Shown here: positions 24,001 to 30,000 of the stretch, one piece after another | Position numbering within the stretch: position 1 is the first letter of the stretch | Layout: every line of letters starts with the position of its first letter | NCBI RefSeq assembly: GCF_013122565.1 | Contig: NZ_CP053258.1 | From: Escherichia coli | GTDB taxonomy: Bacteria > Pseudomonadota > Gammaproteobacteria > Enterobacterales > Enterobacteriaceae | Length of the DNA stretch: 64,000 bases | Direction: 5' to 3' (one strand) | Program-made: the position numbers

Positions 24001-27000
24001 CGCCCGTTACGTTGAAGCGCGAAAACTTTGGGGGCAGTTGATGATTGCCTCACGGTCGTTACTACGTGAGGTAAAAACGACATTGCCGGATTCGGCAAGT
24101 GTAAGGGAGTTTGCCAGGCTGCAAATCGCCTTCGCTCACTGTTTACGCATGACATTACGCAAACAGCCACAGGCGGAAGTGCTGGCACATTATCTCAAGA
24201 CTGAAGATCTTCAGCGTGTACTGGCTTCGAACTCTCCAGCTAACCGTATCTTGTTAATAATGGGGGAGTGGTTGGCGGTTCAGCGCCGCAATGGGCAGCT
24301 TTCAGATATCCTGTTTATTAGCCTCAACGATCGGCTTAACGATATTTCAGCGGTTCTGGCAGGCTGTGAGCGCATTGCCTACACGCCAATTCCCTTTGCC
24401 TACACCCTGATTTTGCATCGTACCGTTTATCTGTTTTGTATCATGCTGCCGTTCGCGCTAGTCGTGGACCTGCATTACATGACGCCTTTTATCTCTGTGC
24501 TGATTTCCTATACTTTTATTTCGCTGGATTGTCTGGCGGAAGAACTGGAAGATCCGTTCGGTACTGAAAACAATGATTTACCGCTGGATGCCATCTGCAA
24601 CGCTATTGAAATTGACCTGTTACAGATGAACGATGAAGCCGAAATTCCAGCAAAAATTCTTCCCGATCGTCATTACCAGCTGACGTGATAATTACTCCGT
24701 ACGGCGGGCAACAATAAAAAGACGCGGAAATGCCAGCAGTATCTGTCCGTTCTCTTGCAGTGGATACTGCTCTTCCAGCATCTGATGGTAGCGCGTAAGA
24801 AAAAGCTGCTGTTCGCTCTCGGTCAGATCCTGTAACCACGGACGTAATCCAGTGGCGGTCACCCAATCGATAATCGCCTGGTGCGACGGCATCTGGTGAT
24901 AGTAGGTGGTTCGCCAGATATCGACCTCACATCCGGCTTCGCTCAAAATATCGTAGTAAGCATGAACGCCAGCCAACGGCTCACGCCCGCGATCCGGGTA
25001 GTTTTGTTCCCAGGCAACTTCGCGCATGAGCACATGGGTCGGCTCCAGCCAGTTATCTGGCATCTGTACTGCCAGCACGCCCTGCGGATTAAGTAAAGAA
25101 ACCAAGTGAGGAAACAATTCGTAGTGGTCGGGCAGCCATTGCAGTGAGGCATTAGCAAAAATCAGATCGAGTGCCTGTTCCGGTTGCCAGTTGCGGATGT
25201 CTGCTTCCACGAACTGGCAGTCTGGCAAAGCACTGCGCGCTTCAGCAATCATCGCCGGAGACGAGTCGATGCCTGTTATCCTGGCCGCAGGCCAACGTTG
25301 ATGCAGCAGGGCGGTGCTGTTACCTGGGCCACAGCCAAGATCGGCAACGTATTTGATATTCTCCAGCGGCACTCTGGCAAGCAGCTCCACCGCCGGACGC
25401 GATCGTTCAGCGGCAAAGTGCAGATATAAAGAGGGGTTCCAGTCAGACATTTATTTACTCCCGTCAGCGCGTTACCCCAATTGTAGATAAAACTGTTGAC
25501 ATCCTCCACGCCCTGAATGACGAGGATCCTGCTACGTTCAGGCTGTCGCCTGAATCATTTCGGTGGGTTCCTGCTTCAACGGGCGGCCTGACTGCACCAT
25601 CCCTCCACAGGCAAGAACGGCGTACCCCGCCGCTAAAATGTTACGAGCGCCGTTTACATCGGCGTTCGCTGTATATCCACATACCTGGCATCTGAATTTA
25701 CTTTGTGACAGGCGATTTTCTTTCGTTGTATGACCACAGCACGCGCAACGCTGGCTTGTGTACGCTGGCGGAACAGCAAGCACCTGACCGCCACACCAGA
25801 GCTGCTTGTACTCAAGCTGGCGACGCATTTCATACCAGCCCTGATCCAGTATCGAACGGTTTAAACCTGATTTTGCCCGGACATTGCGCCCCGGCTGGCT
25901 GACCGTACCCGCTGCTGACTTTGACATGTTGCTGACCTTCAAATCCTCAATGACTATCATTGCGTGGTTTTTGCTGACGGTCGTTGTGACTTTGTGAAGG
26001 TAGTCCCTGCGGATATTTGCGATACGGGAATGCAGTCGCTGTATTTTGCGTTTCTGCTTCTGCCAGTTGTTGCTGAATTTGACCTTGCGGCTTAACTGTC
26101 GCTGAAGTCTCGCCAGCTTCTTCTGGTTTTTCTGAAAACTGTTTACAGGCTCAAAGACTGTGCCATCTGACAGCGTGGCGAGTTTAGCCACGCCAGCATC
26201 CAGCCCGATCATTGATGCTGAAGGGTGAACCGGAGTGGATACTTCACTTTCTGTCTGAATACTGATGTGCCACTTACCGCAGGACTGGCTGACCGTGACA
26301 TTTTTCACAACACCCGTGACCTGACGGCTATTCCGGTAGCGCATCCAGCCCAGTTTCGGCAGAAAAATACGGCTGTTTTCCTGATCGAGCTTAACGCCCT
26401 GCGGGTAGCGGAATGCATCATTCTGTCCCCGCTTTTTGAATCGGGGAAAAGCAGCCCGCTTCCGGAAGAAGTTTTTGTAAGCCCACTCAAGGTCTTTCAG
26501 TGACTGTTGCAATGGCTGTGACGGGGCATCTTTAAGCCATTGCGTTTCAGTGGCATTTTTCCACTCAACCAGCCAGGAAGCCATTTTCCCGTAAGGGATG
26601 TATTTATTACCGGCCTCATGATTCTCATTCTGACGTGCCAGAGCACGATTGAAAACGAAACGACATGCGCCTGCGAAGCGCCTCATTTCACGCTCCTGTT
26701 GACCACCGGGTCTTAACTGGAATTTAAATGCCTGTAGTCGTTTCACAGGTCAAATGATATTTTGGTCTGTGAAAAAAGAAACCGATATCCGGCGTGGAAG
26801 GCATTGTGTTTTCCTGAAGCATGTTCACATGGTCTTTGTCACCAAATACCGACGCCAGATTTTTGACCATGACGCGACAGAAAAACTACGCACTTACTTT
26901 TCAAATGTATGTGCTGATTTTGAAGCTGAACTGGTTGAAATGGATGGCGAACCAGATCACGTCCATTTGTTAATTAACTATCCTCCCAAACTGGCGATAT

Positions 27001-30000
27001 CCAGTCTGGTAAACAGCCTCAAAAGCGTATCGGGTAGGTTACTGCGACGAGATCGACCAGATATTGCAGCCAGGTATTACTACAAAGGCGTTTTGTGGAG
27101 TCCTGGCTATTTTGCCAGTAGCTGCGGAGGTACGCCAATATCCGTCATCCGCCAATACATTGAACAACAGCAAACACCTGGTCAGGTGGAAAACCACACC
27201 TTATATCCCCGCCCTGAAGGACGGGGTTTTACGGCGCACCGGATAAATTCGCCTCACGGCATCAACCCATTGAACAGACGCTTTTTACGCGGCCCGGTCA
27301 TTAAAGATTCCAGTTTCGCGACACAGGTTTTGTAGTGAGGCGTGGTTTTATGGAATGCCACTGCGTCTTCATCTTTATAGGCTTCGTAAATATAAAAGCG
27401 CGAATTCACTTCCGGGTCCTGTAAGACATCGAAGCGCAAATTGCCTTCTTCCTGTACAGAGCCCAGGTGGTTCTGGCGAAAAACTTCGATAAACTCGTCA
27501 ACCTTGTCTTCATGAACGTTAATTTCAACCAGTGTGACGTGCATAATTCTTCTCCTTAAATCCGCAGTTACTGTTTTTCACTCAGATAGAGTTCATATGC
27601 CCGATCAGCTGTTTCGTTATGGTGAACCACCGCCTGTACGGCTTTCATCATCGCCACCGGATGGTCAGACTGGAAAATATTACGCCCCATATCCACACCA
27701 GAAGCGCCCTGATCGATAGCCTGCCAGCACATTTCCAGCGCCTCGCGCTCCGGTAATTTTTTACCGCCAGCAATAACAATGGGTACCGGACATCCGGCAA
27801 CAATCCGTTCAAAACCTTTATCGACATAATAGGTTTTGATAATTTGCGCCCCCATTTCAGCGGCGATTCGAGTCGCGAGCGAGAAATAACGCTGATCGCG
27901 CACCATATCTTTGCCCACGCCTGTCACGGCCATGGTCGGCATTCCCACTTTCATTCCGGCATCGACCAGCTGAATAATATTTTTGATCGACTGATGTTCA
28001 TATTCGCTGCCGATATAAACCTGCGCCGCCACCGCGCAACTGTTCAGGCGCACGGCGTCATCCATCGATAACGCCACGGCTTCATTACTTAATTCCGCCA
28101 GAATAGAGTTCGCACCTGACGCCCGCAGTACCACTGGCTTATTGGTCGCCGGGGGAACTACGCTGCGCAAAATACCGCGCGTACACATTAATACATCGGC
28201 ATGTTCAAACAGCGGGGCGATATTTATATCAATGCGTTCAAGTCCGGTAGTCGGCCCCTGAAAATAACCATGGTCAAAGGCCAGCATCACGGTTTTACCC
28301 GTTTTCGGATTAAATATCCGCGATAAACGTGACTGCATTCCCCAATCCAGCGCACCGCAACCTTTCAGGGTAAAAGGGATATTTTGTTGCGGTTGATCGG
28401 TACGAAAATCTTTACCATCTTTAATATCGTCTAAATCTGCCATAACTTACTCCGGTTAAGTAATGCACATCAGAAATCGTATTTGCCGATATTCTCTTTG
28501 TTGAATATCACGCGCTCCGGTAACAGTACGATGCCATTACCATCCGCTTCGTAGTCATAGCCCTGAACGCTGTTTGGCGAGACTTCCACCTGACCTACGC
28601 CCTGAATATCCAGCTTGTCGCCCGTTTTCATTGATCCTTTTTTCAATAATGCATCCGCGACATAAACTGAAATTTTGCCTTGCTGAACCACATCCCACAG
28701 GCCAAATTCTTTCACCGTGCCGCGCTCTACATACGGGCGCATCACATTTGGCGTACTGAATCCGACAATCGCTACTTTGTCATTTTTCAAGTTTTCTGCG
28801 GCTTGTGCGGCAGCGGGCAGGGCGTTGGCATCGGGGGCGATAATGGCGTCGAGATCGCTATACGCTTTTAATATTCCTTCTGCGGTTTGTAACGATTTAG
28901 TGGCATCGTTATAGCCAAACTGCGTAGTGACAATTTCCCAGCCAGGATGCTCTTTGGCGATTTTCGCTTTCGCTTCTTTCACCCACTGGTTTTGGTCCGT
29001 AACGGTGGGGCTTGAGTAGAAAAACGCGACTTTGGCTTTGTCTTTATTCACCTGACGCGCCGCCATATCCACCAACATACCTCCCAACTGGGCGGGCGTT
29101 CCCTGATTAATGTAGTAAGAGCGGCACTCCGGTTTAGTATCAGAGTCCCAGGTCAGCACTCTCACACCACGTTGCATGGCGCGTTTCAGTGCCGGACACA
29201 AGCCATCAGGCGAAACCGCAGAAACGATAATGGCGTTATAACCTTGATTGACGAAGTTATTAATCAACTGTACCTGACCAGAAACACTGGGTTCTGTCGG
29301 CCCGTCGTAGGTCACATCAACGCCCAGCTCTTTACCCGCTTGTTGTGCGCCGTTGCCACCGCTGGTAAAAAATCCCACGCCAACCAGTTTGGGAATAAAT
29401 GCAATACGCTCTGCGGCCTGCACATTCATAGAGATTGCGGCAATGCCAAGAGCGCTAAGTAAGGCGATTTTCTTAAAGCGATGAAGTGTCATGAAGATAT
29501 CCTTTATGGCAATGGGTTATTGGCCCGACGCGCCAGCCACTCTTTAATTTGCTGGCGATGCAGGCTAACGGAACGACCTACGACAACGACGATAAGTAGC
29601 GCACCGGAAAGGGCGCTGGACACCTGATTTGGCACTCCTGCCATTTGCAAACCTTGTTGCAAATATCCCACTAATAAAACCGCAATGGCGGTGCCGATAA
29701 TGGAACCGGAACCACCATAAATATTGGCCCCGCCAAGCACCACGGCGGTGATGGCGGGCATCAGAAACGACGCACCGAGATCGGAACGTGCTGAACCAAA
29801 ATACGATACCAGCAGCACAGCGGCGACCGCAGACGCCAGCCCCGTCATGGCATAGAGCGCACATAAGGTGCGGTTAACTGGAATCGCGCTATAAAGCGCC
29901 ACGCGCGGGCTTTGCCCAATCAAAAACACATTACGTCCGGCATGGGTTTTATGCAGCCAGAGCCAGAAAACGAGGAGACATATCAGGAAGATAATCAGCG

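Follow-up and report, generated by a model that had tools for sequence, protein, structure and literature searches.

The spacer between tam and lsrG in the Escherichia coli genome studied here (RefSeq assembly GCF_013122565.1, contig NZ_CP053258.1) contains a transposase gene and a tnpB gene, which raises the question of what this insertion is, how it arrived and whether its RNA-guided nuclease still works. The stretch analysed, referred to as the window, is 64,000 nucleotides long. We consider it very likely that the insertion is a copy of IS609 which forms an old and rare insertion polymorphism, with a probably functional TnpB and omegaRNA and doubtful autonomous mobility. IS609 is a named and very common insertion sequence of E. 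coli, the copy described here is an ordinary one that is already annotated, and the TnpB-omegaRNA mechanism is, like IS609 itself, established and already known.

Identity and extent of the element

The open reading frames of the window place tam at 24692-25450 and lsrG at 27254-27544, both on the minus strand. The original prediction of an IS200/IS605 element with divergent tnpA and tnpB genes between them is borne out by the reading frames and by NCBIfam matches. It had also stated that tam and lsrG are neighbours in K-12, and the spacer is indeed only 56 bp in DH5alpha and another strain.

On alignment the element is a copy of IS609, a member of the IS605 group of the IS200/IS605 family. 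Its ends were set, with a 1-nt ambiguity, from empty-site alleles and from the IS609 of K-12 (the feature labelled 'insertion sequence:IS609' in NC_000913.3, 1503161-1504908). They delimit a complete copy of 1,747 bp at 25496-27242, whose top strand (the tnpB sense strand) is the minus strand of the window. The range of 25451-27253 first given for the element is the entire intergenic region, in which 25451-25495 and 27243-27253 are native spacer. Empty-site alleles in K-12 and one other strain join ...aaactg directly to ataaatt..., so the insert alone separates filled from empty alleles and there is no target duplication. Members of the IS200/IS605 family characteristically insert 3' of a defined 4-5-nt sequence and do not duplicate the target site, as is seen here. 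The right terminus occurs once in the window and there is no second IS609 copy.

The copy is 97.5% identical, end to end, to the K-12 IS609 (1,747 against 1,748 bp), which comprises the pseudogene yncK (tnpA) and insQ. Both have a left end, an outward-reading tnpA, a tnpB and a right end, with identical termini (CCGGTGCG... and ...GGATGTCAA), a TTTAT flank, a TnpB of 402 amino acids and a TAG-to-CAG stop loss in tnpA. They differ in locus (ydcL-ydcO in K-12), in 13 amino acids of TnpB and in tnpA, which has an internal stop at codon 96 in K-12 and none in the window. Relative to K-12, the right end in the window has also lost 1 nt and has two substituted positions within or next to the hairpin.

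Ends and target motif

The target and transposon-adjacent motif is TTTAT, native spacer sequence at 27243-27247 on the minus strand, directly 5' of the left end. The comparison with the empty K-12 site, which had been suggested as a check, fixes the insertion point and this motif as well as the lack of a duplication. TTAT or TTAC lies 5' of the left end at approximately 15 independent insertion sites in several genera, and a metagenomic IS609-type TnpB has been purified and assayed on a TTAT-flanked target (PMC12781874 supplement).

The left end (27186-27242, minus strand), defined by DNA folding and by conservation across loci, contains a hairpin of 8 bp by DNA fold, CCCCGTCC-TTCA-GGGCGGGG, at 27207-27226. 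The AAAA at 27227-27230, 5' of the hairpin foot, may by analogy correspond to AAAG, the left guide of IS608 (PMC5934647). The non-coding right end (25496-25537, minus strand), defined by comparison of relatives and by DNA folding, contains an imperfect hairpin at 25505-25526 with a T.T mismatch at 25523/25508. GGAT is found at 25526-25529 and the terminal TCAA at 25496-25499, and the element stops at ...GGATGTCAA. The terminus GGAGGATGTCAA is invariant among relatives, and the flanking DNA past it is unrelated. Subterminal imperfect hairpins at both ends, with no terminal inverted repeats, are typical of IS200/IS605 elements.

The right-end hairpin is conserved and covaries across relatives. 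The window copy has one extra mismatch in it, and its DNA fold is weaker than that of the K-12 copy (-4.9 vs -9.9 kcal/mol). Decay in place was considered as the source of the hairpin changes and rejected, as both substitutions also occur in the copies at yeaQ-yeaR (L008); the 1-nt deletion is the only change specific to the tam-lsrG copies.

IS608 of Helicobacter pylori is the model for single-strand transposition. It too has a Y1/HUH TnpA and subterminal imperfect hairpins, and its insertions lie 3' of a 4-nt site and leave no duplication. Both elements share TCAA as right cleavage site (PMC5934647 for IS608). The IS608 right guide GAAT (PMC5934647) is matched here by GGAT 5' of the right hairpin, with GAAT in many relatives, and the left pair TTAC/AAAG is paralleled by TTAT/AAAA. 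The pairing of guide tetranucleotides with cleavage sites in IS609 is proposed only by analogy. The two elements differ in target (TTAC in IS608, TTAT here) and in gene order, which is tandem in IS608 and divergent in IS609, as it is in IS605.

The transposase

tnpA (26754-27335, plus strand) encodes a Y1/HUH transposase of 193 amino acids. The protein matches transpos_IS200 (NF033573) at 143.3 bits (cutoff 55) over all 126 profile positions (1-126) and aligns to solved TnpA structures, with the HUH motif H69-V-H71 and the tyrosine Y135 present, the combination that defines the Y1 transposases of IS200/IS605 elements. The canonical reading frame of 143 amino acids would end at 27185, where the normal TAG stop is CAG, and the frame therefore runs on through the left end and then through 82 nt of lsrG antisense. 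The stop loss is evident from comparison with L008 and seven other loci whose TnpA ends in ...TPG and a stop, and it adds 50 residues past the helix that bears the catalytic tyrosine. The PGAP annotation of a truncated protein ('tnpA incomplete, missing C-terminus') was rejected: what happened is the loss of a stop codon, and the catalytic core is complete. Autonomous mobility of this copy is doubtful because the tnpA stop codon is lost and the right-end hairpin is weakened.

TnpB

tnpB (insQ; 25538-26746, minus strand) has a GTG start and encodes 402 amino acids, identical to protein record WP_171459371.1. It matches guided_TnpB (NF040570) at 382.7 bits (cutoff 100). The RuvC triad D183/E267/D363 and both CxxC pairs of the zinc finger (C334/C337/C353/C356) are kept, which is the RuvC and C-terminal zinc finger arrangement of TnpB/OMEGA nucleases. 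Loss of these catalytic residues had been named in advance as the mark of a relic, and they are intact.

The closest characterised protein in our comparison is the TnpB of ISDra2 from Deinococcus radiodurans (PDB 8bf8, 8exa, 8h1j), to which the window protein aligns over residues 3-373 (E = 2e-57) with matching RuvC D/E/D and CxxC...CxxC motifs. The RNA layout predicted here is also that of ISDra2, whose guide RNA scaffold extends over the 3' end of tnpB and the right end and takes its guide from flanking DNA (PMC8612924, PMC10278001). The ISDra2 motif is TTGAT, whereas that of IS609 is TTAT, and IS609 TnpB has an insertion of approximately 15 residues after the RuvC glutamate. Searches of the literature on IS609 or InsQ with TnpB turned up no work on the function of the native element in E. 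coli. TnpB of this copy is probably still functional.

The predicted omegaRNA scaffold and its guide

An omegaRNA had been expected at the tnpB 3' end and the adjacent element end, and a conserved structured RNA supported by covariation overlaps both. The predicted scaffold (25496-25641, minus strand, approximately 146 nt) consists of the last 105 or so nt of tnpB and the right end. In an RNAalifold consensus built from 23 relatives there are 40 pairs, 96.5% of cells being paired, and 16 pairs show compensatory changes, a number that none of 500 shuffles reached and that compares with 2-6 in slid controls. The window copy keeps 39 of the 40 pairs. Constraint is also visible in the coding sequence, as synonymous codon identity rises from approximately 0.55 to 0.82-0.87 across the last 30 or so codons of tnpB.

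The structure model is comparative only, unlike that of ISDra2, and a single-sequence fold of the window RNA is no more stable than shuffles (z = -0.01). The right-end helix of the RNA doubles as the DNA hairpin bound by TnpA, so covariation cannot separate the two roles there.

In the suggested comparison with covariance models, RAGATH-18 and HgcC match in the region, two families that have been linked to guide RNAs of TnpB (PMC11061315 and PMC4615843, respectively), but both fall below their gathering scores (28.1 bits against 44.9 and 23.6 bits against 50, respectively). No Rfam family reaches its gathering score in a scan of 24600-28000 at E <= 1, and IS605-orfB-I and -II have no match over the same range and threshold. 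The RNA therefore falls outside the curated Rfam families, although it would act like an omegaRNA. A scan for promoter and terminator consensus sequences revealed neither a convincing promoter, whether for tnpB or for the omegaRNA, nor a terminator in the right end. The omegaRNA of this copy is probably still functional.

Since the scaffold overlaps the tnpB 3' end and ends at the right end, the guide would be the tam-side flank, in agreement with the original prediction. The predicted guide template, CAGTTTTATCTACAATTGGG, lies directly 3' of the right end (25476-25495, minus strand), with 16-20 nt used. The guide CAGTTTTATCTACAAT... is native tam-upstream DNA and matches the empty lsrG-tam site: TTTAT followed by the guide is a perfect match to the empty allele of L003 and differs from that of K-12 by one mismatch. 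The donor junction has GTCAA where the TTTAT motif would be, and apart from this junction the motif and guide do not occur elsewhere in the window within three mismatches.

Proposed mechanism

The mechanism of the family is drawn from earlier work (PMC8612924, PMC10055086, PMC10278001, PMC5934647), and from it we infer expression, RNA processing, cleavage and retention for this copy. TnpA would excise the top strand and re-insert it as single-stranded DNA, a reaction that relies on the subterminal hairpins and on cleavage at TTAT and TCAA. The co-oriented tnpB would supply an RNA-guided RuvC nuclease whose guide is read from the adjoining tam-upstream flank. The target of TnpB-omegaRNA would be the empty allele, in which TTTAT precedes CAGTTTTATCTACAAT..., and its cleavage would favour retention or restoration of the element. 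The occupied site would be spared because GTCAA replaces the motif.

Distribution and age of the insertion

IS609-like DNA is present in 5,369 of 5,426 complete E. coli genomes, and the lsrG-tam junction in only 31 of them; RefSeq annotates the same insertion in 31 complete genomes. A block common at this site would have pointed to a fixed relic, but the K-12 site is empty and few genomes are occupied. The insertion is shared, together with its right-end variant and 1-nt deletion, by 28-31 genomes. Copies at the site differ by 0.8-3%, and the tam alleles of carriers by up to 3.8% (29/759 nt). The insertion was inherited rather than newly acquired, because it is shared by diverged copies on divergent tam alleles.

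Of 13 same-site copies, 12 have an open tnpB; the variant sites of the gene comprise 23 synonymous and 17 nonsynonymous ones (pN/pS approximately 0.25-0.3). tnpA (432 nt) has suffered at least five independent disruptions, against one for tnpB (1,209 nt), and a binomial estimate gives P of approximately 0.006 if the two genes decayed equally per nucleotide. With copies differing by up to 3%, and tnpA decaying while tnpB stays open, the lsrG-tam insertion is by sequence comparison a rare but old insertion polymorphism. Its description as an active accessory system is not supported, the insertion being old and other copies at the site decaying.

The same insertion is also found on very different tam haplotypes. 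The IS copies are less diverged (0.8%) than a tam segment approximately 140 bp away (7%).

Alternative readings

The best-surviving alternative is that the element is an inert relic, in which TnpA and TnpB-omegaRNA are idle and tnpB is open by chance. Other same-site copies do carry frameshifts, internal stops, a lost start codon and, in tnpB, an 11-bp deletion, and no promoter consensus was found. The window tnpB differs from its closest same-site relative at seven positions, six of them nonsynonymous, which fits a recent relaxation of constraint. We nevertheless regard this reading as unlikely, given the excess of tnpA over tnpB disruptions, the low pN/pS and the retention of nearly all RNA pairs and every catalytic residue.

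Less likely still is a fully active IS609 of recent arrival that transposes autonomously. Only three of the 13 same-site copies combine an ATG with an open tnpA frame, and the window copy is one of them; its TnpA also keeps the HUH motif and Y135, tnpB is intact and both element ends remain. The stop-loss variant occurs at four or more different sites, so it may have moved. Against recent arrival stand the 28-31 genomes that share the insertion and its right-end variant at 0.8-3% from the window on divergent tam alleles. Self-transposition is opposed by the 50 extra residues that follow the lost stop, and by the extra mismatch and weak DNA fold of the right-end hairpin. In mutation-accumulation lines, the IS609 of K-12 never transposed (PMC5009759).

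It is improbable, in our judgement, that TnpB and the omegaRNA are selected without a working TnpA, the nuclease alone acting as an allele guard or homing drive. The empty lsrG-tam allele would then be cut whenever recombination or gene transfer imports it. If true, this would account for the persistence of the insertion and its spread across backgrounds, and natural populations would then show a signature of retention mediated by TnpB.

We give almost no credence to a domesticated, TldR-like TnpB that regulates tam or the lsr operon by RNA guidance instead of cutting: TnpB domestication is documented (PMC10705468), tnpB has the orientation of lsrG and tam and survives as tnpA decays, and the guide comes from DNA upstream of tam, 45 nt from its start, but the protein is full length with its triad and zinc finger intact, both ends of a typical IS609 are present, and the guide's own locus has GTCAA and not TTTAT, so the complex should not bind there. 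Membership of TldR, which is marked by loss of catalytic residues or C-terminal truncation and by absent transposon ends, was rejected on the same 402 residues, triad and ends.

Significance

Beyond correct annotation, an old IS609 copy with a probably functional TnpB and omegaRNA is of little importance. It is useful in giving exact ends, a TTAT motif and a predicted guide for a native E. coli TnpB locus, the natural target of which (the empty lsrG-tam site) is present in more than 99% of E. coli. It also provides a scaffold model, backed by covariation, for omegaRNAs of the IS609 type, which fall outside every Rfam family. At one orthologous site tnpB outlives tnpA, which fits persistence of TnpB without ongoing transposition. 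The insertion puts 1.75 kb between lsrG and tam, which could conceivably change tam expression in carriers.

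Identity and boundaries of the element

A divergent transposase/tnpB gene pair was originally predicted between tam and lsrG. The pair is real, since both ORFs lie between these two genes and both match NCBIfam models. The tnpB ORF (25538-26746, minus strand) encodes 402 amino acids and matches guided_TnpB with 382.7 bits (cutoff 100), and the tnpA ORF (26754-27335, plus strand) encodes 193 amino acids and covers the whole profile of the IS200/IS605 transposase equivalog with 143.3 bits (cutoff 55). The native flanking genes are tam (24692-25450, minus strand) and lsrG (27254-27544, minus strand), and the chromosomal order in the window is ydf...mar...uxaB-yneE-tam-[insert]-lsrGFBDCA-lsrRK.

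In K-12 tam is next to lsrG. Both DH5alpha (K-12) and strain 2020N21-246 have a gap of 56 bp between the two genes; their empty sites read ...cccaattgtagataaaactg|ataaattcgcctcacgg..., and the window has both halves of this sequence parted by the insert. Comparison with these empty alleles places the insert at 25496-27242 (1,747 bp, tnpB sense on the minus strand), with no target duplication and a 1-nt ambiguity at its ends. The element had been placed at 25451-27253, a range that covers the entire intergenic region, including native lsrG-tam spacer at 25451-25495 and 27243-27253.

The insert is 97.5% identical end to end, with identical termini, to the MG1655 feature 'insertion sequence:IS609' (1503161-1504908), which lies between ydcL and ydcO and holds the yncK pseudo-tnpA and insQ. 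Judged by this identity, the insert is IS609, an element already known and named. E. coli genomics papers report IS609 routinely and RefSeq genomes already annotate it at the same site, the insert is a correctly recognised, ordinary element.

On the minus strand, in the sense of tnpB, the left-end junction is AATTTAT|CCGGTGCGCC... and the right-end junction is ...GGAGGATGTCAA|CAGTTTTATC. Related elements that inserted independently at about 15 sites, in Escherichia, Citrobacter, Serratia, Pantoea, Erwinia, Photorhabdus and others, have TTAT or TTAC just 5' of the left end in every case. The right terminus is GGAGGATGTCAA without exception in about 30 relatives, and the flanks past it are unrelated. 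A Photorhabdus, Klebsiella and Pantoea subgroup (loci L021, L022, L024-L026, L028, L035, L036, L038 and L047) has a larger right-hairpin loop (about 15 nt more, ..GAGTCACGAAGTGCG..) and a different preceding helix, with the GGAGGATGTCAA terminus unchanged.

Transposase and TnpB proteins

The exact TnpB protein is WP_171459371.1. It can be aligned to ISDra2 TnpB (8bf8/8exa) over residues 3-373 (E = 2e-57), and its catalytic motifs agree with those of ISDra2 TnpB (GLD183AG, VIE267DL, NAD363VN). Its zinc finger keeps all four cysteines (C334/C337 and C353/C356), so that the predicted RuvC-like nuclease with a zinc finger has its catalytic motifs and both cysteine pairs intact.

The identification of tnpA as a HuH/Y1 transposase was borne out by the NCBIfam match and by alignment to the solved IS200/IS605 transposases 2f4f, 2ec2, 2a6m and 2xm3 up through the catalytic-tyrosine helix, in which residues H69-V-H71 and Y135 are kept. 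The TnpA of relatives ends ...EQQQTPG*, with the stop 60 nt inward of the left end. This stop is changed from TAG to CAG in the window copy (27183-27185), in K-12 (L004, the ydcL-ydcO copy), in a ytfB-site copy (L006) and in Escherichia sp. MOD1-EC7003 (L009). The ORF therefore continues past the left end and overlaps lsrG in antisense for 82 nt, which lengthens the protein by 50 residues. PGAP labels the gene 'incomplete, missing C-terminus'; truncation was rejected, the label being due to the stop loss. The stop loss occurs at no fewer than four different insertion sites, and TAG is kept in other genera and in the E. coli yeaQ-yeaR copy (L008). Either a read-through variant has been mobile or gene conversion has spread the change.

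The tnpB GTG and tnpA ATG starts are divergent with 7 nt between them (26746-26754), so the promoter of each must sit within its neighbour. A scan for consensus promoters found none.

Predicted guide RNA and target

No Rfam family matches the element at gathering level. Over 24600-28000 the sole hits with E <= 1 fall at the right end and the 3' end of tnpB; they are HgcC (25483-25605, 23.6 bits) and RAGATH-18 (25568-25611, 28.1 bits), both below gathering level. These families have been tied to RNAs at tnpB 3' ends (PMC4615843; PMC11061315).

We gathered 44 related loci from other species (protein identity 51-94%), of which 23 were aligned over the last ~155 nt before the right terminus. The consensus structure from RNAalifold contains eight helices with 40 pairs in total, and 96.5% of cells are paired on the named structure. 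Compensatory changes support 16 pairs, against just 2-6 in slid controls, and none of 500 shuffles reached the observed covariation, although the terminal scaffold helix doubles as the DNA hairpin bound by TnpA. The window keeps 39 of the 40 pairs, and positions 25523/25508 of the right-end hairpin have T.T in place of the remaining one, but folded as a single sequence its RNA does not exceed shuffled versions in stability. Independent evidence comes from synonymous codons: among 12 full-length orthologues their identity is about 0.55 along tnpB but reaches 0.82-0.87 over its final ~30 codons. Covariation and synonymous constraint together place the predicted omegaRNA scaffold at roughly 25641-25496 on the minus strand.

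The guide would be read from 25495 downward as CAGTTTTATCTACAATTGGG, and the target of TnpB would be TTTAT-CAGTTTTATCTACAAT. The empty lsrG-tam allele in 2020N21-246 matches TTTAT followed by CAGTTTTATCTACAATTGGG exactly, and the one in K-12 has a single mismatch. At the occupied site GTCAA, not the TTTAT motif, precedes the guide sequence, and no other motif-plus-guide match with up to three mismatches is found within the 64-kb window. A metagenomic IS609-type TnpB has been purified and tested on a TTAT-flanked target (PMC12781874 supplement).

IS608 is cleaved on the left at TTAC (guide AAAG) and on the right at TCAA (guide GAAT) (PMC5934647). The window IS609 instead has a TTAT site on the left, where AAAA stands 5' of the hairpin; on the right it shares the TCAA site and has GGAT 5' of the hairpin, where many relatives have GAAT. 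By analogy, the pairing of guide and cleavage site in IS609 would parallel that of IS608. If IS609 behaves as its family does (PMC8612924; PMC10055086; PMC10278001; PMC5934647), TnpA would mobilise the top strand in single-stranded form, TnpB would process its own transcript into omegaRNA, and TnpB cutting of the motif-flanked empty joint would lead to recombination that restores the element.

In the insert IS609 is complete: both ends and the motif are present, the two proteins keep their catalytic residues, and the RNA structure is a conserved one. Autonomous movement of the window copy is doubtful because its transposase reads through its stop and its right hairpin folds more weakly as DNA (-4.9 kcal/mol, compared with -9.9 for K-12 IS609). 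The module of tnpB and omegaRNA appears to be functional. The K-12 IS609 did not transpose in mutation-accumulation lines (PMC5009759).

Distribution, age and asymmetric decay

Of 5,426 complete E. coli genomes, 5,369 carry IS609-like DNA, and the median is three places per genome. The tam-lsrG site is empty in K-12, and the tam/right-end junction is found in just 31 of the 5,426. The exact right-end variant occurs in 28 genomes, every one at this site.

We compared 13 same-site copies. They differ from the window by 0.8-3%, lie beside tam alleles that differ at 0-29 of 759 nt, and show mosaic patterns. A recent arrival was rejected on these grounds, which argue that the tam-lsrG insertion is an old polymorphism reshuffled by recombination. 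The copy in strain RMDEC465 (L054, NZ_CM177019.1) has the K-12-type right end GGGATCCACGTCCTTC... and the other same-site copies have the variant end, which points either to gene conversion among copies of IS609 or to a separate insertion event at exactly this position.

The 5' half of tam (25097-25357) has 19 differences over 260 bp (~7%) from same-site strain L26, while the IS, starting about 140 bp from this stretch, differs by just 0.8%. The window tam is identical to that of MB53 and XJ5.2, whose IS copies differ from that of the window at 19 or more positions. These contrasts imply a recombination breakpoint near the right end.

All 13 copies share the tnpA stop loss, and tnpA has suffered at least five independent disruptions: the start codon is changed from ATG to ATT in eight copies, and there are two distinct 1-nt deletions, an inserted GT and a stop at Q134. 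Only the window copy and two others keep the tnpA ATG and an open frame. By contrast tnpB is open in 12 of the 13, the exception having an 11-bp deletion. Under equal per-nucleotide decay of both genes, so few tnpB hits would have P ~0.006, an estimate from counts. Variant sites in tnpB comprise 23 synonymous and 17 nonsynonymous (pN/pS ~0.25, or ~0.3 when variants shared with other IS609 copies are left out), and the window tnpB has seven differences from its closest same-site relative, six of them nonsynonymous. That tnpB is better preserved than tnpA at a single orthologous site is the sole mildly notable point.

Neighbouring genes and other features of the window

The insert separates lsrG from tam by 1.75 kb and lies 45 nt upstream of the tam start. 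Since tnpB has the same orientation as lsrG and tam, and the right end showed neither a consensus promoter nor a convincing terminator, read-through from tnpB or the lsr operon may extend into tam.

The only gathering-level Rfam match in the 64-kb window is the Hfq-binding sRNA STnc560 (9352-9565, plus strand, 281.9 bits), opposite the small-protein genes mgtS/mgtT of the strain L26 annotation. Downstream of lsrK is an intact 1,806-aa ECSE_1600-family autotransporter (36457-41877, plus strand), its orthologue in L26 is a pseudogene beside IS1. An AIDA-I-type autotransporter adhesin (1,195 aa) and an Aah/TibC-type heptosyltransferase (386 aa) are encoded at 44148-48910 (minus strand), the position after hipBA at which L26 has integrase genes; this suggests an accessory island. 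Other accessory genes, with no relation to IS609, lie on the plus strand at 54533-58412 and 61002-63653, and comprise genes for tricarballylate utilisation (hits to TcuA and TcuC) and one for a fimbrial usher.
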